Counted from the stretch's first letter, positions 2,775-20,000 are shown. The stretch: DNA of 20,000 nucleotides from an uncultured virus (IMG/VR IMGVR_UViG_3300025011_000039) (IMGVR_UViG_3300025011_000039); one strand, 5' to 3'. A program made the numbers and translations. Notes: generated from the letters alone by a model not told the origin.

Positions 2775-2795
2775 AAAAGACACCGTTAGGTGTCT
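2775..2795 (-). terminator. Intrinsic terminator-like hairpin after the HNH gene
   Basis: AGACACC-TAAC-GGTGTCT then TTT on the minus strand. Confidence 0.5.
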
Positions 2796-3618
2796 AGTTT
2801 GTTGATTGCTTATTTGTCCAAGCGTAACCTGCTGCTCTGCGACATTCCATGCTATCGTATTTTACCTTACCCCTTTTATATCTCGATAGTGGTACTGTAA
2901 ATTCCTTACCGCAATATTCGCAGTTTAAAGTTACTGTATTGGTTTTTGAGTTACGTTTCTTTTGACACTCCGCACTACAATACTTACCCCTGCCACCCTC
3001 TATGAGGTAGGTTGTTGTATTAAACTCCTTACCACAAACACCGCATACCGCAATTATATGTATTTCTTGATTAATTGGTTTGCCGTGCTGTTTGCCGTGA
3101 CAAGATGAACATAGGGTAATTAGGTTGCTAGGATCATCGTTGCGGTTTTCTGTTTGTCCGGTATGGTCCTTGTGGTGGACAGCAAGTTTTTCTACTGCAC
3201 CACATTCAACACATTTATATCCATCACGCTCCAAAACCAATTCCCTATTTCCTGAGAATCTTGTTTTGTCGTGATTTTTTGCATCACTCGCCCTTTTATA
3301 ATCCATTCTTTTAGCGTTACGCTCCCTATCTTTTAGGCGAATAGCATCAATATTTTTAAGTCTATATTCACGAGACTTCTCTTTCTTTTCTTCGGCATTT
3401 TCAAGGTATATTCCCTTAAACGTATGCTCTTTGCAGCAATATTTTTGCTTACCAGACGAAGGCATAAAAACTACACCACAATATTTACACTTTCTTTCAG
3501 TTAGGGGTGGTCTTAAATGCCTTTCTTTCCTTGAATTTTCCCTGCACTCAGAACTACAATACTTCTGCGATCTGGTTGCATTAAATTCCTTGCCGCATCT
3601 TGGGCATTTCTCTATCAA
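2794..3618 (-). CDS. Freestanding HNH endonuclease with four flanking Cys-rich zinc-ribbon repeats (putative homing endonuclease)
   Basis: RDGYKCVECG...LAVHHKD...NDDPSNLITLCSSCHGKQH HNH core; repeated CxxCGKEF...KYCSxEC units; GGAGGTG SD 6 nt before TTG at 3618 (the track's GTG 3627 overlaps the SD). Confidence 0.88.
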   Translation of the reverse strand: MIEKCPRCGKEFNATRSQKYCSSECRENSRKERHLRPPLTERKCKYCGVVFMPSSGKQKYCCKEHTFKGIYLENAEEKKEKSREYRLKNIDAIRLKDRERNAKRMDYKRASDAKNHDKTRFSGNRELVLERDGYKCVECGAVEKLAVHHKDHTGQTENRNDDPSNLITLCSSCHGKQHGKPINQEIHIIAVCGVCGKEFNTTTYLIEGGRGKYCSAECQKKRNSKTNTVTLNCEYCGKEFTVPLSRYKRGKVKYDSMECRRAAGYAWTNKQSTN

Positions 3619-3627
3619 AATATACAC

Positions 3628-3691: not shown

Positions 3692-4663
3692 TTACACAGG
3701 AATACTGAATTGGAAAGGCCTCCACGACTTACTGCCACAAGAATACCACATTATGGAACCTACTTTCCAGACCTGATTCTCCATATTCTTCCAAGAGATA
3801 ATATCGTATTTATCCCCAGATTCTAGGCGATTAATCCACTTCATGGATTTTTTAGCCATCTTAGAGTCCATAACACACCATGGTTGACCGGTCTTTCCTG
3901 CTTGACGACGGAATTGCTTATAGACAATCAATTTCATCGAACCGTTGTAAATGTTCGGGTTGTTGTCGGAAGAATCTACTTTACCTTCACCGCCGATTAA
4001 TTCCAAACCTTTCTTGCGAAGGGCTGTAGGCACAATTAAAGTATCAGGTTGAAGATTTGCGTCCTTGCCCGAACTGTCCTTAACATCAAACATTTTTTGA
4101 CATAAAATTTCGAGATTCTCGTCGTTGAGTTCTAGGGCCTCTAAGTTATCCTGAGTGCTTCCATAGTTAGCAGAAGTCTGAGCGTTTGAAGCAAGCGGCA
4201 ACCCATTGGCTGTCAAAGTCCAGTTAACAGGAGTTCCGTTAACCATAAAACTTGTCTGGTCGGCATAAGTAAGTAAACCGGATGCGCACGCTTCGCGGTG
4301 TCTTGCTGCGCCAATAGAGAAACCGGAAAAATCATCCTTTAAATTAATAAGTTTAGCATTAGACAGTAAGAATCTGTCATACTCCATGCCCGCCTGCCAC
4401 ACGATTGGGGTCCAGATCTTCGTATCGCCTTGTTTCATGGTGCCATAAGTGAATTCACCGTTCCACTTACTGTAGTCAATCGCCCCAACCATCTCACCGA
4501 TTGCCTCAGTGGGGTTATCTGATTGCTCAGGAGTATACAACTCGTCAATCATACTATCTTGAATAGCATCGGTAAAACCGTCCTGCCAAAATTCCAAGAG
4601 CGCATGTTCATATTTCCCAACTAACTGTTCAAAATCTCCGCTTTCTTGAATTAAAACTGCCAT
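3692..4663 (-). CDS. Major capsid protein (HK97 fold, Mu gpT-like)
   Basis: 323 aa, follows scaffold and a 141-aa gene; LQPDTLIVPTAL and WCVMD motifs typical of this capsid class. Confidence 0.85.
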   Translation of the reverse strand: MAVLIQESGDFEQLVGKYEHALLEFWQDGFTDAIQDSMIDELYTPEQSDNPTEAIGEMVGAIDYSKWNGEFTYGTMKQGDTKIWTPIVWQAGMEYDRFLLSNAKLINLKDDFSGFSIGAARHREACASGLLTYADQTSFMVNGTPVNWTLTANGLPLASNAQTSANYGSTQDNLEALELNDENLEILCQKMFDVKDSSGKDANLQPDTLIVPTALRKKGLELIGGEGKVDSSDNNPNIYNGSMKLIVYKQFRRQAGKTGQPWCVMDSKMAKKSMKWINRLESGDKYDIISWKNMENQVWKVGSIMWYSCGSKSWRPFQFSIPV

Positions 4664-7491: not shown

Positions 7492-9606
7492 CTAACCTAC
7501 CATACTCATTACCGCCTGCACCTGCTGTTCTGCCGGTAGTTGCATGATTTGAACAAAGGTATCAGGATCGTTCTCTTTAATCTGATTTAACTTGTCCACA
7601 AAACTCATAACTGCGCCCTGTTGCAACTCGCCGCTCATAGCCTCTTTACTACTTTCAAGGTCGTGCGATTGCTGCTGGCGGTTTAGTTCTCCCTGCTGTT
7701 TCGTAACAGCAAGTTCTTTCTCATGCTGCTGTTTAGCAAGCATCATATCGGTACTCTGCTGTAGTTGCTGTTCCTGTATCTGCTTCGCCTGCTCTTCCTG
7801 CTTTGCCTGCATCTCCTGTGCCTGCTGTATATCCTGCTCCATTTGCCCAATAACTTCCTTAAGGTGCGGAACACCGATTTTATCAAGAATTTTCAGTATC
7901 AGCATATTTCCAGGAGTAGGTTCAAAACGTCCCTGCCCTGCAAGAGACACGATAGAATTCATCATTTCCGACTTATTCTTCATGAATCCGACTTCTGCAC
8001 TAATCTCAATATCGAAGTCTGGATAAATTAAGTCACCGTTAACGTCACGAAGCATAGACAAGCGGTTAAACTGACCGTATTTATTCTCGCCCTTCTCTCC
8101 TGTAATACGAAAAGGTCTATCATCATCACAGAACGCCAATGCAAACTCGGCAATAGTGCGGTAAAGAGTCTTGTATGAGGTTGACTTATAGGCAGACTTA
8201 ATCGCTAATTTATTACTTGACTGACTGATATATGCCTGCGCTTGATCTCCGGAAGTTACTCCTGGTTGATGAACTCCTAATGAAGCATCGGTTACGCCGG
8301 TAATAAGTTGCATCCATTCTTTGAATTTATCAACCAATTGAATACCGTCAATATTGGTACTTAAATCAACTTCCTTGACAGAATTCGGATCATTAACATG
8401 GATTATCTCTGATGTTGGGTCCATAAGTTTTCTTTGCACTTCAAGAGAATCGGTTAAAATCTTCTTCCTACCACGAAGGAAAGATTCTTCATACATATGC
8501 ACTGCTTTCTTAATACTCTCCTGCAAGTCCCAAACATCTTCCATAATAGATATACCCCAACAACATTTATCACGCATAATAAACGGTTGGTAGACTATAT
8601 CCCAGCAAGTAGGTATGTAGTGTTCTGCTTCAATATCGCTGTCTATTTTCGAGTAGATAGGATTACCTTGCTCGTCTATACTCTTTCTCAACATAGATCC
8701 TGCTTCAATAGTTTCAGTCATATAGGGTTCGCCTGTTTCCTCGTCCCTACGATAAAAGAACTTCGGCAGGTGCTTAATCAGTAAATCACCGGACCACCAC
8801 AACTTACAAATATCTCCGTCATCGTCGCGGTAGGTAGTCTCAATAATTGTATACTTGCCAAGTCCCGTATCCTTAGAAACTCCGGTAGTGTCGGTAACGG
8901 TAGTTATTCTTTGGTCGCCCAATATCTCGTCATACTCGGCATACAGAATTGCCTTTTCTTCCAGCATGTCACTCGTTATATCCTTCCATTTGCGAAGAAT
9001 ATACTTTTGTGTACGGTTAACCGGATGATGATAATGCTCCATGTCGTCGCCGAAGTTAATAGATGATTTGTTAGGTATAATATCCTTCGGGTGAGGGTTG
9101 CTAATCTCAATCTCACCGACATATCCAGCACGTTTAATGTTGTTATTCCAGTGAACCTTTTTGAATGTACCGCCAAGTTTACTTACTCTGCGCTCGTCTG
9201 ACATATTCATTTCTTCAAGTGAAGGTGAAGAACTTCTCAGCACATAACCGACGTAACTTTTTAAAGCATTAACCGGCACTTCATCGGCAGCGGTAACAGG
9301 TTTAAAGTCATGGTCAGGAATAGTCATGTCAATTAACGCTTCTATAATTAGGCGAGGGAAGTTAACAACTGTTCTCGCTTCCTTATCTTGCCTATTGTTG
9401 ACGTTCTCGAATTCGCGATTACCGTTATACATATTTTCCCACGAATCCATAAGAAGATCGTACTTTTTCTTCGTTTGACGGTCAATCTCGAACTGATCTT
9501 GCCAGTATTTCAGCAAATCAAGGGTCTCTTGATCGTATTCTACAGCAGGTGCTACTATTTCTCTCACCTTCTTTTTTAACGCACGAAATGGTTTTTTCCA
9601 GTCCAT
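7492..9606 (-). CDS. Portal protein (P22-like, long Gln-rich C-terminal coiled coil)
   Basis: 704 aa following terL; RTVVNF, GGTFKKVHW, WGISIMEDV, ITGVTDASLG..PGVTSG and DFDIEI motifs. Confidence 0.88.
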   Translation of the reverse strand: MDWKKPFRALKKKVREIVAPAVEYDQETLDLLKYWQDQFEIDRQTKKKYDLLMDSWENMYNGNREFENVNNRQDKEARTVVNFPRLIIEALIDMTIPDHDFKPVTAADEVPVNALKSYVGYVLRSSSPSLEEMNMSDERRVSKLGGTFKKVHWNNNIKRAGYVGEIEISNPHPKDIIPNKSSINFGDDMEHYHHPVNRTQKYILRKWKDITSDMLEEKAILYAEYDEILGDQRITTVTDTTGVSKDTGLGKYTIIETTYRDDDGDICKLWWSGDLLIKHLPKFFYRRDEETGEPYMTETIEAGSMLRKSIDEQGNPIYSKIDSDIEAEHYIPTCWDIVYQPFIMRDKCCWGISIMEDVWDLQESIKKAVHMYEESFLRGRKKILTDSLEVQRKLMDPTSEIIHVNDPNSVKEVDLSTNIDGIQLVDKFKEWMQLITGVTDASLGVHQPGVTSGDQAQAYISQSSNKLAIKSAYKSTSYKTLYRTIAEFALAFCDDDRPFRITGEKGENKYGQFNRLSMLRDVNGDLIYPDFDIEISAEVGFMKNKSEMMNSIVSLAGQGRFEPTPGNMLILKILDKIGVPHLKEVIGQMEQDIQQAQEMQAKQEEQAKQIQEQQLQQSTDMMLAKQQHEKELAVTKQQGELNRQQQSHDLESSKEAMSGELQQGAVMSFVDKLNQIKENDPDTFVQIMQLPAEQQVQAVMSMVG

Positions 9607-9781: not shown

Positions 9782-11380
9782 TTAAAAACCTACAATATGT
9801 TCCTGTAACTTCTCGTATTCTTTCTCAAACGCAATGTTATTTAAAACTGCTGACTGCTCAGATAACGACATATCATCGGGAAAGTTAAACTTTTCATCCT
9901 TAGAAATGGGAGGTCTTGACATTACGCAATAGCGTAAACTTTCGTTGCTGTGCGTGACCTCGTGTGGAGTATCTGCCGCATCCTCAGAGTCGTTTTTATC
10001 ATGTTCAAGTAACGGCAAGCAACGTATCATATTTTTACAGGTATCAAATATTTTTAGTTTAGCAGTAAAAATAGTCTCCGTCTTAATACCTTCATCTGTC
10101 ATAATATCCTGCTTTTCTTCCCTAGCTAACAGATACTCTCTTACCGCCCTCCACCCTGCCTTACGCTCATGCTTTGCTTTTCTCAGGTTATTTAGCCCGG
10201 CACGGTTCATTATCTCCCTGCCGCTTGTCCCTGTCTCTTGCCGTCTATTCCATAAGTCAGGAGAAGCAACCGTATAACTTATTTTCTCGTCTTTGGGTGT
10301 CATGGAGATAATCTTTTTCGCCGCCTGACTAAGTGTTAAGTTTGGTTGATATAACTCACGATAAGCATACATAATCCCTTCTGGTGATACTGCCCACCAG
10401 TGACAAGAACACATATCAAGTCCATAGTCTAAAGAGCAGAACCGTTTCCACCAGGACGGTATCTTAAACGGTTTAACGACATGCACATCACGACGAAACT
10501 CTTTAAAGAACTGCCCTTCACCGGCAGTAAACGCCTCTTCTGGAGTCGCTGGATACTCTGCCATATAACTATGAGGTAAGTCTTTTTTAACCTGCTCATA
10601 CCACTCCTGGGTACGTCTAGGGTCGGTACTCCAAGGCATAAATATAGGCGTAAACGTATTTTCACCGTTGTACGCCTTCCAAAATATTTCCTCAAATAAG
10701 GTACCTTTTTTAGCGGTAGACAACCCAATAACCTGCCCACCAGTAGGACGATTAATAGTCGGGTAAGCAGCAGACCAAATATCTCTAGCGAACATCTGAA
10801 ACGCCCATTCGTCGAGTATTACGAGGTTTGCCGTGAAAGAACGTCCACTGTCAGGACCAGCAGACATAGCGTTAAAAACAGCAGGTTCCTTGCCCTTATG
10901 GTAGATAGTAACCGACAATACTGTTGAATCCCATGTAGGGTTAGGGTATTGCTTAGGAGTACCCTTAACGTGACGAATCATCCATGAAGGTAGGTACCTA
11001 AGAATAAAGCATATACGCCTAATAAGTTCCTTAGCATCTTCTTCCCTCTTAGATAGAGCAACAACAGAATATCCAGGTCTAAATATAACCCCGTGCAATC
11101 CGTAAATAAGAGATAGCCAAGTAAAACCTAACTGCCTAGCTTTAAGAATAATCGACAACTTACTGTCAATAATCTTCCTTAACGCTTCCTTCTGACCGTC
11201 CCATAAATTAAGTTTAGCAACTAGGTCAGGAACATCTCTATCCTCAATATAAGCGTATTTATCTATGAAATACTCTACACTCTTAGAGGATTTACGATAT
11301 TCTAATTCAACTTTCGCTGCCGCTTTTTCCCTTAACTTCTGAGCGGATAGTTTTTTCTTTTCCTTCTGTTGGTCAGTCAT
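9782..11380 (-). CDS. terL: Terminase large subunit
   Basis: Walker A ILKARQLGFT, Walker B LVILDEWAF, coupling motif LST, nuclease SLDYG and C-terminal acidic/His motif. Confidence 0.95.
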   Translation of the reverse strand: MTDQQKEKKKLSAQKLREKAAAKVELEYRKSSKSVEYFIDKYAYIEDRDVPDLVAKLNLWDGQKEALRKIIDSKLSIILKARQLGFTWLSLIYGLHGVIFRPGYSVVALSKREEDAKELIRRICFILRYLPSWMIRHVKGTPKQYPNPTWDSTVLSVTIYHKGKEPAVFNAMSAGPDSGRSFTANLVILDEWAFQMFARDIWSAAYPTINRPTGGQVIGLSTAKKGTLFEEIFWKAYNGENTFTPIFMPWSTDPRRTQEWYEQVKKDLPHSYMAEYPATPEEAFTAGEGQFFKEFRRDVHVVKPFKIPSWWKRFCSLDYGLDMCSCHWWAVSPEGIMYAYRELYQPNLTLSQAAKKIISMTPKDEKISYTVASPDLWNRRQETGTSGREIMNRAGLNNLRKAKHERKAGWRAVREYLLAREEKQDIMTDEGIKTETIFTAKLKIFDTCKNMIRCLPLLEHDKNDSEDAADTPHEVTHSNESLRYCVMSRPPISKDEKFNFPDDMSLSEQSAVLNNIAFEKEYEKLQEHIVGF

Positions 11381-13554: not shown

Positions 13555-14016
13555 TTAGTCCTCCAACAACTGCTCCAACTCCGCATCCGACATACCAGCT
13601 ATGCGAACATCTACAGGTCCGCCGTCCGCGCCTGTCAACTCCAATTTTTGTGTATCAGACCACGAATCAGGTTTCCGATTTTTTAGCCAGGCCATGGCTG
13701 CGCCCGTGTCTGGTGGATAGTGCTTTTCTGTTGGCACAATAACCGGCAGACCATCATGGACAAATATTTTGTCCTCCGGATGTGAGTAACCTTTCGCTCT
13801 TTGATACAGACTTTGCGCTATTTCCGTGTCAGCAATTACCTTCCCTCTCTTTAAGGACTCGCAAAATAATGGATATTCCAGCTTCCATCTATTTACAGTA
13901 GCTTCGTCAACCTCAAAGAAATCAGCTAAACTTTTGTCCGTTGCTCCCAACAGGCACAATTTATACGCCTGTTCGTTGTATTCTTCCTTGTACTTCGTCG
14001 GTCTTCCTGCTGGCAT
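13555..14016 (-). CDS. terS: Terminase small subunit
   Basis: GRPTKY N-terminus, HTH (ATDKSLADFFEVDEATVNRWK), PPDTGAAMAWLKNR and ELTGADGGPV motifs. Confidence 0.92.
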   Translation of the reverse strand: MPAGRPTKYKEEYNEQAYKLCLLGATDKSLADFFEVDEATVNRWKLEYPLFCESLKRGKVIADTEIAQSLYQRAKGYSHPEDKIFVHDGLPVIVPTEKHYPPDTGAAMAWLKNRKPDSWSDTQKLELTGADGGPVDVRIAGMSDAELEQLLED

Positions 14017-14460: not shown

Positions 14461-14583
14461 TTTTCAGCACTCCCAACACTTTAAAACATAGTTACCAAAA
14501 CATCTTAGAGTAATAAGAGGAGTCTATTGCGTTCAAAACACCTTCTAGTCGTTGTCGCTATTGGCCTAAGAGGTATCTTTGAT

Positions 14584-14658
14584 ATGTAGTCCACAGACTA
14601 CATGAAATGCCACTATAGGTATACTACAGACTACATGTTATAAGTCGGTTGTAGTCCA
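14584..14658. repeat. Cluster of four TGTAGTC/GACTACA sites (iteron/operator-like)
   Basis: Palindrome ATGTAGTC-CACA-GACTACAT (14584-14603); direct repeat ACAGACTACATG (14593 and 14626); TGTAGTCCA (14585 and 14650). Confidence 0.7.
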
Positions 14659-14726
14659 GCAAACACAAGGCATGAGCGACACTTTTTAGGCTTTAGATGC
14701 CTCTATTAACTCTAAGATACCGCAAA

Positions 14727-15245
14727 CTAACTATCATTAGCGTTGTAGGTTTTAAACATATCCACCAGAGTCGCGTTTATAAACCGGCCCCGGAAAAAGA
14801 TGTACGGATTTGCGAAGTATTGATAACTTTTGCCTACCTTGTTACGAGCGAAAACTTTTTTACGAACTAACCTGTCCATGCTCTTAACAACGGTAATCCT
14901 ATTAAACCCGGTAATCTTTTCAATGTCTGATTGACTAACCGGGTTACCGCCGCCTTTTGTCAACATTCCGCTGTTGTAGCTGATATGTCCCATGAGCAAC
15001 ATGACAATAGCCAGCTCTGCACCGCTGAGGCGTTTTCCTTCATCGTCAAGCATCGTTACAACATTAGCCAGTTCGTCAGGAAAAACTTTTACGAATTTCT
15101 TTTCAGGCTGCCAGAGAACGCGATCCTGCTCTTCGGAAATATCCTCGCGGAAACCATAATAGGTATTTGTCAAGTCAACGCCCTTTGATTTCAAACGATT
15201 CACCGTTTTGGCGAACTCCTGTAAAACAATATCTTTGTCAGACAC
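14727..15245 (-). CDS. RepL-like (Firmicute plasmid replication/maintenance) winged-HTH protein
   Basis: FVKVF, HTH SQSDIEKITGFNRITVVKSMDRL and YFANPYIFFRG signature typical of the RepL family. Confidence 0.7.
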   Translation of the reverse strand: MSDKDIVLQEFAKTVNRLKSKGVDLTNTYYGFREDISEEQDRVLWQPEKKFVKVFPDELANVVTMLDDEGKRLSGAELAIVMLLMGHISYNSGMLTKGGGNPVSQSDIEKITGFNRITVVKSMDRLVRKKVFARNKVGKSYQYFANPYIFFRGRFINATLVDMFKTYNANDS

Positions 15246-15271
15246 AAATTCACCTTCCTTCTATGTAAAGC

Positions 15272-15292
15272 AAAAAGCACCCTCTCAGGTGC
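15272..15292 (-). terminator. Terminator-like hairpin in the leader of the RepL-like gene
   Basis: GCACC-TGAGAG-GGTGC followed by TTTTTGCTTT, between promoter and start codon. Confidence 0.5.
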
Positions 15293-15361
15293 CTCGAAAA
15301 CGATATATCCCTACTCAATACAGTAGGTAAAAACAACATGGTATAAAACCCCCACACTACC

Positions 15362-15390
15362 ATTTTACCACGGCCAAAGCCCATTTTCAA
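15362..15390 (-). promoter_or_regulatory. sigmaA-type promoter (leftward)
   Basis: TTGAAA, 17 bp, TGnTAAAAT. Confidence 0.7.
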
Positions 15391-15457
15391 GCAAAACTTT
15401 CCGTTTTCCTTCTATATATAGCATTTCCGGCAAATGCAGATCCGTCTAATGGCTGGG

Positions 15458-15486
15458 TTGCCATATGGAAGCCCATGTAGTATACT
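15458..15486 (+). promoter_or_regulatory. sigmaA-type promoter of the RHH gene, overlapped by an operator-like palindrome
   Basis: TTGCCA, 17 bp, TATACT; TGGGTTGCCA-TA-TGGAAGCCCA at 15454-15475. Confidence 0.7.
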
Positions 15487-15505
15487 GTCTTTGGAGGTGG
15501 TCAAA

Positions 15506-15706
15506 ATGTCGGCAAAAAGAAAAGAAAAATATAGAGATGGCTGGGAAAGTTTTAACCTGCGCCTGTCAACCGAGGATAAAGCAAAACTAGCCGAAATATC
15601 AGCAGATACGCGGGTTCCAGCATCCGAAATAGCCAGAAATGCTATCAAAAAAGAACTTGCGGAACTTCAAAAAACGCTGAAAAAGGCAGATACAGCTAGT
15701 ATTTAG
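15506..15706 (+). CDS. Ribbon-helix-helix (Arc/CopG/MetJ-like) transcriptional regulator (66 aa)
   Basis: GGAGGTGG SD before ATG 15506; SFNLRLSTEDKAKLAEIS...PASEIARNAI pattern. Confidence 0.8.
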   Translation: MSAKRKEKYRDGWESFNLRLSTEDKAKLAEISADTRVPASEIARNAIKKELAELQKTLKKADTASI

Positions 15707-15717
15707 CAGGCAGGATA

Positions 15718-15790
15718 ATCTGGATACCCATAAATGGCTGAATATAAGGTTATTTGAGGCTTTACGGCATGGGTATCCAGATGATAGTAT
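15718..15790 (+). promoter_or_regulatory. 14-bp inverted repeat operators and probable promoter of the early gene string
   Basis: ATCTGGATACCCAT (15718-15731)/ATGGGTATCCAGAT (15769-15782); TTTACG, 18 bp, TGnTAGTAT. Confidence 0.55.
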
Positions 15791-15832
15791 AAGCACATGG
15801 AACACAGCAACACACGAACGGGAGGCGCAGAC

Positions 15833-15958
15833 ATGAAAAAACTTCTTAAATACACCGCCACAGCATTAGCAGTAACTACAATGTTTCACCCGGTAGGAAT
15901 GGGAATCGCTCTCCTGGTAGGAATCGGATACATGGGTTACTTATTAGCTACAAATTAA
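15833..15958 (+). CDS. Small hydrophobic membrane peptide (41 aa)
   Basis: GGAGG SD; MKKLLKYTATALAVTTMFHPVGMGIALLVGIGYMGYLLATN. Confidence 0.65.
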   Translation: MKKLLKYTATALAVTTMFHPVGMGIALLVGIGYMGYLLATN

Positions 15959-15974
15959 ATAAGGGGGAAACAAA

Positions 15975-16106
15975 ATGACCAAACAGCTAAAGCGCAAAAT
16001 CAAGCAGTACACCAAATCGGTAGGACTAGAAAAAGCGGTAAACCTAAACAGAACTAAGTTAATCGACTTTTGCAACTTCTGCGTATTTCACAGCATTAAA
16101 TTCTAG
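15975..16106 (+). CDS. Small basic protein (43 aa)
   Basis: AAGGGGG SD; MTKQLKRKIKQYTKSVGLEKAVNLNRTKLIDFCNFCVFHSIKF; stop abuts hammerhead 1. Confidence 0.65.
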   Translation: MTKQLKRKIKQYTKSVGLEKAVNLNRTKLIDFCNFCVFHSIKF

Positions 16107-16157
16107 CCTGCCTGATGAGCTGTAGACAGCGAAATGGGGATAAAACCCCATAGCAGG
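16107..16157 (+). ncRNA. Hammerhead ribozyme, type I (HHR1)
   Basis: Stem I CCTGC/GCAGG; core CTGATGA; stem II GCTG-TAGA-CAGC; GAAA; stem III TGGGG-ATAAAA-CCCCA; T-A cleavage site (AUA, cut after 16152). Confidence 0.92.
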
Positions 16158-16209
16158 ATGAAAGTAAGCTGCACAACACGAAAACAGAATATCGAAGGAG
16201 GCAGACAGT

Positions 16210-16494
16210 ATGAAAACAGCCGAAAGCATCAGCATAAAAAAACTAAACAAAGCTGAAAACGCATTATTACAGGAAGAACTGGAGTTGGCGGCAAGAAAGT
16301 TTAATGAAAACTTCGACTACTACACCAAAAATAGAAAAAACCCAATCGAACTAATGGTTTGGTACGGAAGATATGTAGCAATAGACAGATTGTTCGGAAC
16401 TTCAAGTCTAGTAGAAAGTTGGAAGTTAAGTCACATGACAAACCTGTTAATGCAACTTAGCACAGGAGCGATTGAACACTATAGGACAGCATAA
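16210..16494 (+). CDS. Hypothetical protein (94 aa) bracketed by two hammerheads
   Basis: ORF track; AAGGAGG SD. Confidence 0.8.
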   Translation: MKTAESISIKKLNKAENALLQEELELAARKFNENFDYYTKNRKNPIELMVWYGRYVAIDRLFGTSSLVESWKLSHMTNLLMQLSTGAIEHYRTA

Positions 16495-16495
16495 A

Positions 16496-16553
16496 CCCAC
16501 CTGACGAGACTTGACGGTAACAAGTCGAAATGGCCGAAAGTGGCCATAGTGGG
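16496..16553 (+). ncRNA. Hammerhead ribozyme, type I (HHR2)
   Basis: Stem I CCCAC/GTGGG; core CTGACGA; stem II GACTTG-ACGGTAA-CAAGTC; GAAA; stem III TGGCC-GAAAGT-GGCCA; T-A cleavage site (AUA, cut after 16548). Confidence 0.93.
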
Positions 16554-16601
16554 AAACCACAGCAACAAAGCGCACCGCACACGCAGAAAAGAATACAAAA
16601 A

Positions 16602-16704
16602 CCCCACAGCGCGAACCAGCGAAGTCGGCATAATCCGAAAGGGCCAGCCAAGGCAAGCGAACACTGGACCCGAAGGGATATCCGCTAGAGGTGCAGAAAA
16701 GGGG
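16602..16704 (+). ncRNA. Candidate structured RNA of unknown class
   Basis: Nested pairings CCCC/GGGG, ACC/GGT, AGCG/CGCT and CCAG/CTGG, plus TCC-GAAA-GGG and CCC-GAA-GGG hairpins in a GC-rich intergenic stretch; stems are short. Confidence 0.35.
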
Positions 16705-16712
16705 AAGCATGG

Positions 16713-16764
16713 TAGTTTAGGTTTGCGTGAGTACCCACAAGGGAATTGACGTGAATTTAAACTA
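16713..16764 (+). repeat. Pre-RBS long stem-loop element (copy 1)
   Basis: TAGTTTAGGTTTGCGT/ACGTGAATTTAAACTA 16-bp stem with four G-U pairs, capped by CCC-ACAA-GGG. Confidence 0.65.
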
Positions 16765-16781
16765 AAAGGAGATTGATGATT

Positions 16782-17096
16782 ATGCCGAAAGTAAACATTA
16801 AGGAACTTCAGGTTTGCAATTCTTACGGTGAAGAACAAAACACGCAGTCGATAAAAGAAGCGTTACTGCGCGAAGCGGTTAAGCAATGCGACTGCTACTG
16901 TACAGACTTGTTAATTTTCTTTGACTACACATGGAAGGACTTGCTTAAGGGTGATTTGACCGAAGTAACATTATATTTTCGCCAAATGGGTATTGATTGG
17001 AAAGAGGAAAATAAAGACTGTAGGAGTACGGCAAAATTAAGGAGAGATGTCGAAAAGGACACTTTAGAATTAACCATAGAATATGGCAGGCACTAA
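16782..17096 (+). CDS. Hypothetical protein (about 104 aa; alternative starts 16773/16776)
   Basis: ORF track; AAGGAG SD. Confidence 0.75.
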   Translation: MPKVNIKELQVCNSYGEEQNTQSIKEALLREAVKQCDCYCTDLLIFFDYTWKDLLKGDLTEVTLYFRQMGIDWKEENKDCRSTAKLRRDVEKDTLELTIEYGRH

Positions 17097-17150
17097 CCTA
17101 GCACTCGCTAGGTTTTACCTCTGGTCCCTGTAGGGGTTGGACGTAAAATC
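17095..17150 (+). repeat. Intergenic double-hairpin element (copy 2)
   Basis: AACCTAGC/GCTAGGTT, then GGTTTTAC...CCC-TGTA-GGG...GTAAAATC. Confidence 0.7.
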
Positions 17151-17167
17151 TAAGGAGGATGATAATT

Positions 17168-17395
17168 ATGTTTGAGGAAAAAGTAATATTCATGGAATCT
17201 ATTTGGAAGCACCTTGAGACGCTTCAAGATTCAGAAATACTGCAAGAAAAGAAGGATGCGCTTGAAATTCTGGAAATTGTCAACGATCCGCAAGTCCCGG
17301 CACATTGGGATCAAAAAGTAGAAGCATACTTGGAACTTGCTACTATAGAAATGCAAATACACAAGCGACAAGTTTCTGGGATGTGCAAGGAATAG
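17168..17395 (+). CDS. Hypothetical acidic protein (75 aa)
   Basis: AAGGAGG SD favours ATG 17168. Confidence 0.75.
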   Translation: MFEEKVIFMESIWKHLETLQDSEILQEKKDALEILEIVNDPQVPAHWDQKVEAYLELATIEMQIHKRQVSGMCKE

Positions 17396-17449
17396 GGACT
17401 CCGGTCCCTGCTTCGCCAAAACTCCTTTAGAGAGGGGTTTTGTTGAGGT
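17394..17449 (+). repeat. Intergenic double-hairpin element (copy 3)
   Basis: AGGGAC-TCCG-GTCCCT, then GCTTCGCCAAAACTCCT...AGGGGTTTTGTTGAGGT. Confidence 0.7.
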
Positions 17450-17467
17450 AAATATAGGAGGGATATT

Positions 17468-17659
17468 ATGATAGTAAACGAGTTCAAGAGTTTTAAAAAT
17501 ATATTCACCGTATTTTCATATGGTAATAAATTCCTACTTCAAGTAAAAATAGGAAGGTCGGGCAATTACTACAATTATAATTCCTTACTTAACATTGCTC
17601 CAACCGAATCTCAGGCATTTAGTTTATGGCAAAATCAAAGGAAATATTGGACTAGGTAG
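17468..17659 (+). CDS. Hypothetical protein (63 aa)
   Basis: ORF track; AGGAGG SD. Confidence 0.72.
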   Translation: MIVNEFKSFKNIFTVFSYGNKFLLQVKIGRSGNYYNYNSLLNIAPTESQAFSLWQNQRKYWTR

Positions 17660-17666
17660 CAGGTCC

Positions 17667-17726
17667 GCGACTACCTAAAGTCGCAGTTTTACCTAAATCC
17701 TTTTGCGAGAGGGTTTAGTTAAAACT
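17667..17726 (+). repeat. Intergenic double-hairpin element (copy 4)
   Basis: GCGACT-ACCTAA-AGTCGC, then AGTTTTACCTAAATCC...GGGTTTAGTTAAAACT. Confidence 0.75.
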
Positions 17727-17744
17727 ATGAGGGAGGCTAAAATT

Positions 17745-18371
17745 ATGAAAACTTTATATTTTGAAGGTGCCGGATGCGTACCGCGCGGAATGGTTGAAAA
17801 TTGCCGCATTAGAACAGCTTTTCACAATGACAAAGGGGAGGCAATCTACTTAGAAATGTCTGGTTTTGAAGTAACCAAAAACAGCGTCAAAAGCGTTAAA
17901 CAATTTACCTTTGCCGGGATAGTTGACCATTGCCATTATATCCATAATGACGACGATTGTAACAAGCACAGCATCGTCAGTATGAGACACAAAACTTTTA
18001 AGTACACCAAATCCGAAATTCTCAGTATTGTAAATTCTCTGGGTTGCAGTTTTGACGAGGTTGTTATTCTTCCTGACTTGGCCGGTTATCGAGTTTTTAA
18101 AGACCGCGAGGGTCATAACTTCGGGGATGAATTCAAATTTAACGCAGAACTTACCGCCCGCGCAGAGGAAATTAAAGCCTATTTTTACGCCTTGGAAAAA
18201 AGCGAGGGCAAGCAATACCCTAACTTTTCCTTATGGGTAGATCAGGATAACCGCGAAATACTCCATTTATTGAGGCATTTTAACGGCTATAATAAACATT
18301 GGTCGATAATAAATAGCGCAAACTGGAAGGAAAATACAACTAAAACCGTACTGGGAAAATACGCCTGTTAA
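17745..18371 (+). CDS. Hypothetical protein (208 aa)
   Basis: GGGAGG SD before ATG 17745 (MKTLYFEGAGC...NCRIRTAF). Confidence 0.82.
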   Translation: MKTLYFEGAGCVPRGMVENCRIRTAFHNDKGEAIYLEMSGFEVTKNSVKSVKQFTFAGIVDHCHYIHNDDDCNKHSIVSMRHKTFKYTKSEILSIVNSLGCSFDEVVILPDLAGYRVFKDREGHNFGDEFKFNAELTARAEEIKAYFYALEKSEGKQYPNFSLWVDQDNREILHLLRHFNGYNKHWSIINSANWKENTTKTVLGKYAC

Positions 18372-18385
18372 TATACAAATTCAAA

Positions 18386-18422
18386 CTCCCCGGTAGCTGT
18401 TGTGAGCAGTAAAACCGGGGAG
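18386..18422 (+). other. Intergenic hairpin
   Basis: CTCCCCGGT/ACCGGGGAG with inner GCTGTT/AGCAGT stem; no T-tract. Confidence 0.6.
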
Positions 18423-18469
18423 CAGGGAAAATATATGTCCACCGATATTATAACATAGGAGGTCATACC

Positions 18470-19102
18470 ATGACAAAGATAATAAATTTCTCTAACGCTC
18501 AAATGCCGATTATCACAGCAACAGCACCACGGCAAGAGGTCAAAACTGGATATGTGCAGGAGTTCGACGGTTGGAAGGTTGGTCAGGAGTGCCAGGTCAA
18601 GGAGTGGAACGGCACTTACCGCATTGACCATATTTATTGTTACTCTACATTTACTCAAGTTAGAGTTTTAAAGATTGCTCGCAACGGTAGCACAAAGGGA
18701 AGTAATACCACAGACATTAACAACCTATTACCGATAGGCGCAGCACAACCGACAACCGACAAGGACGGCAAAACAGCTTTACAGAAGGCACAGGAAATAT
18801 TAAAAATAAACGGTTTTGCGGTTAAGGACTGGTACTACACGACACAAGAATCACTTGTAGTAGTTATCAGTCACACAAAAACCGGCAGGGTTAAAATCCA
18901 GAGGGCGCGAATTATTCAAGGCGAAAAGATGCAGAAGGACATGGAAACATTTTCACTTGATATGGATAATCTTAGGTACACACTAGACAAAGAACAGCAA
19001 ATTTTCATTCCTAAACTTTTCGGGGGAGAATGGCATTGGTGGAACGATAGTGAAACGCTAAAGCCATTCAAGGGAAATAAATTAACACGTTTACTGGATT
19101 AG
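18470..19102 (+). CDS. Hypothetical protein (210 aa)
   Basis: ORF track; AGGAGGT SD. Confidence 0.82.
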   Translation: MTKIINFSNAQMPIITATAPRQEVKTGYVQEFDGWKVGQECQVKEWNGTYRIDHIYCYSTFTQVRVLKIARNGSTKGSNTTDINNLLPIGAAQPTTDKDGKTALQKAQEILKINGFAVKDWYYTTQESLVVVISHTKTGRVKIQRARIIQGEKMQKDMETFSLDMDNLRYTLDKEQQIFIPKLFGGEWHWWNDSETLKPFKGNKLTRLLD

Positions 19103-19119
19103 CAACAAGTATGAGGCAA

Positions 19120-19178
19120 GCGGCACCTTAACGCCGCAGTTTTACCAAAGTGTCACAAGAGGGGATTTTGGTAAAATT
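19120..19178 (+). repeat. Intergenic double-hairpin element (copy 5)
   Basis: GCGGC-ACCTTAAC-GCCGC, then AGTTTTACCAAAGT...AGGGGATTTTGGTAAAATT. Confidence 0.75.
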
Positions 19179-19195
19179 AAAAGGGGGTTAGATTT

Positions 19196-19435
19196 ATGAC
19201 TAATACATATTTAATCTATGATGGAAACAAAGGTTTATTTAATGATGATGCGGTAGTAATAGCTAAAAATGCAACCGAGGCAGTAAAAAAGTATATGAAA
19301 GGAAATAACATTTCGGGCAGTGTTAGAAGGGATGGAAGTAATTATGTAAGGTTTAAAGTTACTAAGTTTGTAACCAAGGAAAACAAAAGATATAAGTCTG
19401 GTAGATCAATTTGGTATTTGCATCTTACAGGATAA
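19196..19435 (+). CDS. Hypothetical basic protein (79 aa)
   Basis: ORF track; AAGGGGGT SD. Confidence 0.75.
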   Translation: MTNTYLIYDGNKGLFNDDAVVIAKNATEAVKKYMKGNNISGSVRRDGSNYVRFKVTKFVTKENKRYKSGRSIWYLHLTG

Positions 19436-19439
19436 TTGC

Positions 19440-19499
19440 AGGGACTAACGTCCCTTGCCTAAACTCTCTAGCAGGAGGGTTTCGGGAGGGGATTACCCC
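19440..19499 (+). repeat. Intergenic hairpin element (copy 6)
   Basis: AGGGAC-TAAC-GTCCCT, then AAACTCTC-TAGCAG-GAGGGTTT, then GGGG-ATTA-CCCC. Confidence 0.7.
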
Positions 19500-19522
19500 A
19501 ATACTATGAGGGAGGTCGTTAT

Positions 19523-19720
19523 ATGCGGGAATACATAGAGATTTTAATCCAAAACTACGCCACGAGTTCTATAAATGCTAAGACCGAAATGGAAATAATG
19601 AAACGTAATAACCAAGAGTACCTAGAAGGTTATTATCGTGGTAAGTCGGATGCTTTGGGTAACGTGGCGAGGGAACTTAGGAAGATGTTAGAGGAAAGCA
19701 CATTGGAGGCAACACAATGA
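19523..19720 (+). CDS. Hypothetical protein (65 aa)
   Basis: ORF track; GGGAGGT SD. Confidence 0.75.
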   Translation: MREYIEILIQNYATSSINAKTEMEIMKRNNQEYLEGYYRGKSDALGNVARELRKMLEESTLEATQ

Positions 19721-19953
19721 CCATAAACACGTCTAGCAACCCGATACAGCGGGGCAAAACGCCGACAGGTACAAATACACCTGGGTTAAGCAAATACCGA
19801 TTGTCAGTCCATTTCCCCGACTTACGCATAGGCAAAACTACTATCCCTGCTGGGGTGGATCGGAAGGAAGTCTGGGGAACTTCGCCGTTGGATGCCTGTC
19901 AGTGGACGGCAGAGCATTTTAGAGCGGCAGAGTGGGTGGAGGTGGTACAGTGA
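19717..19953 (+). CDS. Hypothetical protein (78 aa)
   Basis: ATGA overlap with the previous stop; GGAGG SD. Confidence 0.7.
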   Translation: MTINTSSNPIQRGKTPTGTNTPGLSKYRLSVHFPDLRIGKTTIPAGVDRKEVWGTSPLDACQWTAEHFRAAEWVEVVQ

Positions 19954-20000
19954 TTAATCCTAATCAACCAAAACCACAACCGCAACGCTTCGATGAACTA
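19950..20000 (+). CDS. Start of a further ORF, truncated by the window edge
   Basis: GGAGGTGG SD, GTGA overlap; MINPNQPKPQPQRFDEL... Confidence 0.5.
   Translation, partial: MINPNQPKPQPQRFDEL

Follow-up and report, generated by a model that had tools for sequence, protein, structure and literature searches.

Two hammerhead ribozymes bracket a single gene in an uncultured phage whose relatives carry other ribozyme classes at the same gene boundaries

Bacteria and phages carry thousands of self-cleaving ribozymes, and a 2019 review, in its account of them, still calls their role and purpose an open question (PMC6765202). A 20,000-nucleotide (nt) stretch of DNA from an uncultured groundwater phage (IMG/VR IMGVR_UViG_3300025011_000039), hereafter the window, raises this question at a single locus: two hammerhead ribozyme motifs, HH1 and HH2, stand on its + strand on either side of one open reading frame (ORF) of 94 amino acids (aa). 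What do they do there? An initial annotation, made from the sequence alone, proposed that they release the gene as a separate RNA that might be closed into a circle, and our analysis partly supports this interpretation. We put a rough probability of 0.6 on the reading that HH1 and HH2 are active type I hammerheads which cut a rightward polycistronic RNA and so act as punctuation that needs no protein.

Two complete type I hammerheads around one gene

The initial annotation described two complete sense-strand type I hammerheads with intact cores and AUA cleavage triplets, and a strict descriptor together with minimum free energy (MFE) folding bears this out: HH1 and HH2 are genuine members of the class, and their cleavage is predicted. 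HH1 has a stem I of CCUGC/GCAGG, the core CUGAUGA, a stem II of 4 base pairs (bp) with the loop UAGA followed by GAA, and a 6-bp stem III closed by A15.1-U16.1, with A16152 at H17. HH2 has a stem I of CCCAC/GUGGG, the core CUGACGA, a 6-bp stem II followed by GAA, and a stem III of 6-7 bp, with A16548 at H17. The sequences of all three stems are unlike between the two, yet they stay paired, as had been claimed. By the class definition in the Methods of Perreault et al. 2011 (PMC3088659), both motifs carry the entire core (C3 U4 G5 A6 N7 G8 A9, G12 A13 A14, A15.1-U16.1, H17 not G), and their stems of 5/4/6 bp (HH1) and 5/6/7 bp (HH2) are all canonical or G-U, with no mispair at 10.1-11.1, 1.1-2.1 or 15.1-16.1 and no multiple mispairs in short stems.

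The strict descriptor requires the full core, stems of at least 4/3/4 bp, A15.1-U16.1 and an H17 other than G. When both strands of the 20 kb are searched, it finds exactly HH1 and HH2, both on the + strand; in 2000 windows simulated with a first-order Markov model, the chance rate is 0.0015 matches per 20 kb, both strands counted. A loose pattern of the core only finds the same two against 4.17 expected and is not significant alone, as 94 of 200 shuffles had at least two matches. Folded with 10-nt flanks, each motif adopts the hammerhead three-way junction as its MFE structure (z of -3.4 for HH1 and -3.0 for HH2). The two ribozymes begin 0 and 1 nt after the upstream stop codons TAG 16104-16106 and TAA 16492-16494, respectively, a join that the initial annotation had placed correctly.

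The piece between the predicted cuts (16153-16548, 396 nt) carries the Shine-Dalgarno sequence GAAGGAGG and the 94-aa ORF. The proposal that cutting would free a monocistronic RNA with its own ribosome-binding site is thus supported, as a prediction from the motifs and the ORF map. No Pfam or PHROG family matches the 94-aa ORF, its only match among 5.8 billion protein clusters is itself, and no related locus is found among viral contigs. Its Atlas model is helical and resembles only unnamed helical look-alikes, with no named family among them.

HH2 is a member of a widespread phage type I subfamily that has the stem I CCCAC/GUGGG and shows strong covariation. A pattern made of its first 13 nt and last 10 nt matches 20 stretches in viral contigs, with 19 unique sequences besides the window copy, and five stretches in contigs of three metagenome-assembled genomes (MAGs; Oscillibacter, Candidatus Avimonas and Dysgonomonadaceae). 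In the alignment of 20 sequences including that of the window, 98.2% of cells are paired, compared with 28-47% in slid controls. Compensatory changes occur in nine of the 20 pairs, including all seven of stem III, and on four of five measures none of 500 shuffles reaches the observed value. We note that stem I and the 3' tail give no covariation evidence, because the search pattern fixed them. The same limit applies to a possible tertiary contact: in 19 of the 20 sequences, the GGU of HH2 loop II has a possible partner in an ACC that follows stem I on its 3' side, but the ACC was fixed by the pattern. One member (L221) has 15.1 and 16.1 swapped. Members of the subfamily can be clustered: a 52.6-kb prophage contig that is unrelated to the window (L209-L211; also L314, L316 and L317 of the Oscillibacter MAG) has three HH2-type hammerheads on the same strand in a span of 1.9 kb. 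There a 313-aa ORF stands between two hammerheads, the second of which begins right after the stop codon of this ORF.

The relatives of HH1 are fewer. Examination of 80 of the 85 stretches matching an HH1-type pattern gives 50 unique sequences, nearly all of them chance matches in coding DNA, and for that reason no covariation test can be made. The hammerhead-like matches are L281 (the same as L070), L304 (the same as L078) and perhaps L244 and L285. Both of the clear relatives of HH1 carry flaws. A UAGA/UCUA loop pairing that is possible in HH1 was considered as support and dropped, since L078 lacks it.

Ribozymes at the same boundaries in related phages

Relatives of the phage were found through both terminases, and blastn shows that they share parts of the rightward region. 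Positions 16556-16771 are conserved in six loci at 72-88% identity, and the HH1-ORF-HH2 stretch itself is not conserved. The conserved part contains an A/C-rich leader and a Y-shaped RNA, which we term module A. The first 12 nt of the predicted downstream product (16549-16560) fold as a 4-bp hairpin, GUGG-GAAA-CCAC, at the new 5' end, and 15 of 19 HH2 subfamily members retain the two bases that complete it; this hairpin may be a trap for the cleaved state or a shield of the new 5' end. Module A has invariant junction bases, and RNAalifold on 12 sequences gives 25 pairs, eight with compensatory change, with 97.7% of cells paired against 27-42% in slid controls. It has no Rfam match at E-values up to 10, and a scan of genome contigs gives no match.

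At the Rfam gathering score, 13 loci found through the terminases contain eight pistol ribozymes, all on the strand equivalent to the + strand of the window, and one RAGATH-18 RNA. The latter belongs to a relative of 59.7 kb (L046, 11078-11141, +; 62.2 bits, cut-off 44.9) and shares its strand with the terminase gene.

A conserved 17-mer of the leader retrieves 18 viral loci, 14 of which are true relatives; the other four (L064, L065, L068 and L077) are unrelated GC-rich chance matches and were dropped. A leader 15-mer was also scanned against metagenomes, and one of the 80 loci with DNA among the matches listed is a true relative (L148), the others being chance. At E-values up to 0.0012, Rfam finds eight pistols and six type II hammerheads in the 18 leader loci. 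Four of the six type II hammerheads reach the gathering score of 37 bits, and the two in L062 (36.2) and L078 (35.7) are just below it. Among the type II copies, bases of loop I covary with those after stem II (GGCU/AGCC, GACU/AGUC, GUCU/AGAC), in agreement with the type II pseudoknot described by Perreault et al. (PMC3088659).

These loci give 13 distinct leader sequences, including that of the window, and the element directly upstream of the leader differs among them. It is a type I hammerhead in one (the window), a type II hammerhead in eight (L062, L070, L076, L078 and L079 by Rfam; L148, L069 and L072 by eye and regular expression, the last two with the core CUGAGGA), a pistol in three (L066, L067 and L074), and an uncatalogued element of about 85 nt in one (L063). 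The predicted type I cut in the window and the type II cuts in L070 and L076 lie 52 and 50 nt, respectively, ahead of the same 17-mer. All 12 distinct relatives that carry module A have a ribozyme or the L063 element directly upstream of it. The position relative to the preceding gene is nearly constant: 17 of 18 ribozymes examined begin between -2 and +1 nt from the upstream stop codon, and in the sole exception (L076) the upstream ORF is deleted except for its last codons.

The uncatalogued element (L063, 1383-1466) is a predicted three-way junction right after the stop codon of a 54-aa ORF, and it has no Rfam match at E-values up to 10. Of nine matches to a pattern made for it, two are real (L063 and L203); as these are identical, they give no covariation.

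The initial annotation had asked whether related phages carry different ORFs between the ribozymes. They do, with the order ribozyme-ORF-ribozyme around unrelated small ORFs. L062 has a 43-aa ORF, a pistol, a 72-aa ORF and a type II hammerhead; L079 has a 104-aa ORF, a pistol, an 80-aa ORF and a type II hammerhead; L044 has a pistol, a 72-aa ORF and a variant type II hammerhead; L063 has a type II hammerhead, the 54-aa ORF and the uncatalogued element; L001/L074 has a type I hammerhead, two ORFs and a pistol; and L070 has a 43-aa ORF, an HH1-type hammerhead, a 61-aa ORF and a type II hammerhead. One ORF family can also be followed by different ribozymes. The 43-aa ORF that ends at HH1 in the window is followed by a pistol in L062 and by an HH1-type hammerhead in L070, the 72-aa family by a type II hammerhead or a pistol, and the 54-aa family by a type I hammerhead in L002 and by the uncatalogued element in L063. 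That one upstream ORF family or one leader occurs with varied ribozymes points to recombination break points on both sides of the ribozyme.

A DNA contig from a run of the same habitat (X3) is an example of such a rearrangement. In it, 16102 is followed after a single extra base by 16492; HH1 and the 94-aa ORF are absent, and an HH2-type ribozyme comes directly behind a 43-aa-type ORF. We regard it as a relative and not the phage of the window, because it is a single contig with a depth of 4.25 and 85% likeness.

Proposed punctuation of a polycistronic transcript and its alternatives

The window is phage DNA, with the terminase, portal and head genes on the - strand and small + strand ORFs running rightward from about 14.7 kb (Table 1). 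The rightward genes come in the order ribbon-helix-helix protein (to 15706), 17-bp inverted repeat, small membrane-like ORF, 43-aa ORF, HH1, 94-aa ORF, HH2, about 230 nt without an ORF, and an ORF of about 104 aa from the next ATG. The inverted repeat is not an ordinary terminator, as no U-run follows it. A consensus scan of the + strand gives no terminator-like site before 17667, and thus none between the best upstream promoter-like site and HH2. Further gaps of the operon (17097-17165, 17390-17452, 17656-17736, 19109-19188 and 19436-19516) contain a small GC hairpin after the stop codon and then a long A/U-rich hairpin that reaches to the Shine-Dalgarno sequence of the following gene; relatives conserve these gaps and differ in the genes between them. 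With long hairpins in the other gaps, every gene boundary is therefore marked at the RNA level. A blastn search of 14500-20000 against GenBank phages gives no match, and a search for RNA runs that cover 15400-17200 found none. Rfam also returned drum (19.9 bits, cut-off 43) and PreQ1 (14.8 bits, cut-off 39), which we judge to be chance matches; both overlap ORFs.

Table 1 Features of the window, with positions counted from its first nucleotide
Feature	Position	Strand	Detail	Basis
HH1, type I hammerhead ribozyme	16107-16157	+	predicted cut after A16152	strict descriptor, MFE fold
HH2, type I hammerhead ribozyme	16496-16553	+	predicted cut after A16548	strict descriptor, MFE fold, covariation
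Leader of the released RNA, 57 nt	16153-16209	+	Shine-Dalgarno GAAGGAGG at 16194-16201	
94-aa ORF	16210-16494	+	orphan, predicted helical	profile, homologue and structure searches
A/C-rich leader of the downstream product	16549-16601	+	conserved in relatives	
Module A, conserved Y-shaped RNA, ~100 nt	16602-16704	+	closing helix CCCC/GGGG, two covarying arms	
Long hairpin	16714-16763	+	ends just before Shine-Dalgarno of next gene (ATG 16782)	
43-aa ORF	15975-16106	+	stop codon TAG abuts HH1; conserved in L062, L070	
Best sigma-70-like promoter upstream	15458-15486	+	TTGCCA-17-TATACT	consensus scan only
Near-perfect inverted repeat, 17 bp (94%)	15715-15785		after ribbon-helix-helix gene, ahead of conserved leader	
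Small terminase	13555-14016	-		PHROG 309, E 4e-55
Large terminase	9782-11380	-		Pfam/PHROG scans
Portal protein	7492-9606	-		Pfam/PHROG scans
Mu-gpT-like head protein	3692-4663	-		Pfam/PHROG scans
HNH endonuclease, among head genes	2794-3627	-		PHROG 1271, E 1e-31; Pfam HNH

In the reading that we prefer, small phage genes would be transcribed rightward into one polycistronic RNA that includes HH1 and HH2, and each ribozyme would fold while leaving the polymerase and cut itself after 16152 or 16548, so that the transcript falls apart at two boundaries between genes. Between the cuts would lie a message of 396 nt that encodes the 94-aa protein and has a 5'-OH, a 57-nt leader containing the ribosome-binding site, and a 3' end made of the folded HH2 body and a 2',3'-cyclic phosphate. 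The downstream product would begin with the GNRA hairpin, followed by the A/C-rich leader and the Y-shaped RNA ahead of the next gene. In this way the ribozymes may uncouple neighbouring cistrons, so that each has a constant leader at its 5' end and a folded 3' end no matter which cassette recombination places beside it. The sequences show the motifs with their statistics and covariation, their constant placement and the exchange of classes at shared boundaries; transcription across both motifs, cleavage in vivo and an effect on stability or translation are what we infer here. That ribozyme classes stand in for one another at these boundaries speaks for selection on the cut and not on the sequence of the ribozyme, and the tight join to stop codons together with the conserved leaders argues for punctuation or insulation of shuffled cassettes. 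There is also experimental precedent in the account of Perreault et al., where hammerheads clustered in prophages stand on either side of single genes and every one of them cleaves in vitro within native transcripts of about 2 kb (PMC3088659), and processing of polycistronic transcripts is the role suggested in the 2019 review (PMC6765202).

Several observations weigh against this reading. The search with Rfam hammerhead models proposed in the initial annotation (the hammerhead clan CL00010 and RF03152, Rfam 15) did not come out as hoped: no match is found anywhere in the window at gathering thresholds, and in E-value mode Hammerhead_HH9 reaches 16.8 bits against a cut-off of 52 and RAGATH-1-hammerhead 18.5 bits against 56.3. 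We note that the gathering score is a database threshold and not a class-defining feature, and that these sub-threshold alignments put the hammerhead core in the correct place. Fast cutting at cellular Mg2+ needs a tertiary contact between stem I and loop II, which is only suggested here, and the UAGA/UCUA pairing of HH1 is missing in L078. AUA is a permitted cleavage triplet but not the fastest. The two clear relatives of HH1 share its stem I, and each is flawed in or next to the core (C at core position 4 in L070, U-U at 10.1/11.1 in L078), so that the HH1 lineage may be decaying. The promoter and terminator calls come from consensus scans only. Finally, in the report on the glmS ribozyme of Bacillus subtilis, RNase J1 attacks the 5'-OH left by the cut (PMC3328962), a difficulty if the host belongs to the Bacillota; the suggestion of the initial annotation that a 5'-OH may slow decay depends on the host and is not supported as a general statement.

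Some of these points would fit inactive relics or chance look-alikes, namely the sub-threshold Rfam scores, the core-adjacent defects of the HH1 type and the 15.1/16.1 swap in L221. We consider this highly improbable, since one match of the strict descriptor is expected 0.0015 times per window and two are found on one strand 390 nt apart, no flaw is seen in the core or stems of either window copy, the subfamily shows strong compensatory change and the placement is conserved. Just as improbable is a 396-nt piece that is closed into a circular translatable RNA, by the hammerhead reverse reaction or by an RtcB-type ligase. RtcB joins 5'-OH to 2',3'-cyclic phosphate ends, and the MFE structure of the piece pairs its 5' end near the 5' part of HH2, both of which speak for a circle. 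Yet self-circularisation finds no support in the predicted energies: the cross-junction stem I, made of the HH2 strand and the 3' strand of HH1, reaches -1.0 kcal/mol versus -6.8 kcal/mol for the native stems, and the joined junction misfolds, pairing into the catalytic core, so self-ligation of the ribozyme appears disfavoured in these models. Ligation by a protein is conceivable but gains no support from the analysis. The bracketing pairs of the relatives are also of two unlike classes (pistol and type II hammerhead), from which no ribozyme could be rebuilt across the junction, and Pfam and PHROG scans reveal no ligase gene among the 32 ORFs of the window that were scanned. For clustered prophage hammerheads, the results given by Perreault et al. 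include no detected circular or spliced products (PMC3088659).

Two other explanations accept the cuts and differ in their use. HH2 might mainly make the 5' end of the RNA formed by the downstream leader and module A, with the bracketing of the 94-aa ORF as a by-product of an unrelated upstream ribozyme, and this downstream RNA may then act on its own as a small RNA or regulate the next gene as its leader. A ribozyme (12) or the uncatalogued structured element (1) stands directly upstream in each of the 13 distinct versions of leader and module A, the ribozyme class and the upstream ORF both vary ahead of them, the spacing from the type I and type II cuts to the 17-mer is nearly equal, and the fold of module A covaries. 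On the other hand, L076 keeps its ribozyme although it has no module A there, an ORF following directly on the leader, and ribozymes also stand at boundaries with no module A behind them, such as HH1 in the window, the pistols in L044 and L079, and the hammerheads in L002 and L001. We find this explanation possible but unlikely as the main purpose, and it is compatible with punctuation. It is less probable again that the ribozymes are timers or off-switches which keep early messages short-lived, with the 5'-OH attacked by an enzyme of the RNase J type or with a protective context removed. The account of glmS in B. subtilis offers a precedent (PMC3328962), the HH2 subfamily is found in MAGs of Oscillospirales (Bacillota), and pistols are described as prevalent in Firmicutes in the report by Harris et al. 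(PMC4604425). However, the stable 5'-terminal GNRA hairpin in 15 of 19 subfamily members looks protective and not exposing, and constitutive ribozymes give no obvious timing. We keep punctuation as the preferred reading.

Known systems and the meaning of the locus

Hammerheads flanking single prophage genes have been known since Perreault et al. 2011, and the window is a further case of the arrangement described there (PMC3088659). The arrangement is recognised by at least two coding-strand hammerheads flanking a gene in phage DNA, as is found here on the + strand around the 94-aa ORF. In the prophage clusters of Clostridium scindens, Azorhizobium caulinodans and Agrobacterium tumefaciens presented in that paper, phage genes are separated by several hammerheads of the same strand, the flanked genes are not always the same ones, and the proposed role is to turn a long phage transcript into single-gene mRNAs (PMC3088659). 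Those three clusters cut in vitro (PMC3088659), and the copies in the window are predicted to cut; they also differ in that both are type I with AUA, that they belong to an uncultured groundwater phage, and that the same boundaries are filled by other classes in relatives. Co-location of hammerhead, twister, pistol and other self-cleaving ribozymes near phage genes, which later papers credit to Weinberg et al. 2015, appears in the reports of Harris et al. 2015 (PMC4604425) and in the review (PMC6765202), and a pistol and a hammerhead close together are likewise seen here. Here, however, one class replaces another at a shared gene boundary in front of a single conserved RNA, which goes beyond proximity.

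Retrozymes, viroid-like RNAs and satellite RNAs resemble the locus in carrying direct-orientation hammerheads a few hundred nt apart, and their near-identical repeated hammerheads re-form across the junction, mostly without an ORF (PMC5680766; PMC6765202). In contrast, HH1 and HH2 have no stem sequence in common, their junction cannot re-form, and what they enclose is a protein-coding gene of a DNA phage. The mark of a hammerhead-bounded circular RNA, an active ribozyme re-formed across the junction, is thus absent. In phage T7, RNase III divides the early polycistronic transcript into its cistrons, leaving messages that each have a structured 3' end. That system works alike without family kinship, as it uses a host protein and leaves a 5'-phosphate and a 3'-OH, compared with the self-cut, 5'-OH and cyclic phosphate expected here. 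RiboJ, a self-cleaving ribozyme insulator, gives a constant 5' leader regardless of the upstream sequence; RiboJ is engineered, whereas similar insulation here would follow from the natural shuffling of cassettes.

What the locus adds is the slot-wise replacement of ribozyme classes and the ribozyme-headed Y-shaped RNA. Our literature search, which did not cover Weinberg 2015 and Roth 2014, found no paper on either, and on phage ribozyme function it found nothing newer than the 2019 review; a 2026 preprint on ribozyme 'body plans' contains nothing that bears on the question. As a tentative generalization, which we think rather doubtful at present, the position after the stop codon and ahead of the Y-shaped RNA might be a class-agnostic ribozyme slot that accepts hammerheads of type I or type II, a pistol or the L063/L203 element. 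If the slot always needs a self-cleaver, the L063/L203 element would be a new self-cleaving class. If so, the Y-shaped RNA may also depend on a 5'-OH end made by a ribozyme, and the natural swaps would be a ready-made test of the purpose of phage ribozymes. The relatives amount to a natural experiment, in which the same boundary and the same downstream RNA are combined with three or four different self-cleaving elements, and they provide matched constructs for studying message stability, translation and the insulation of shuffled gene cassettes.

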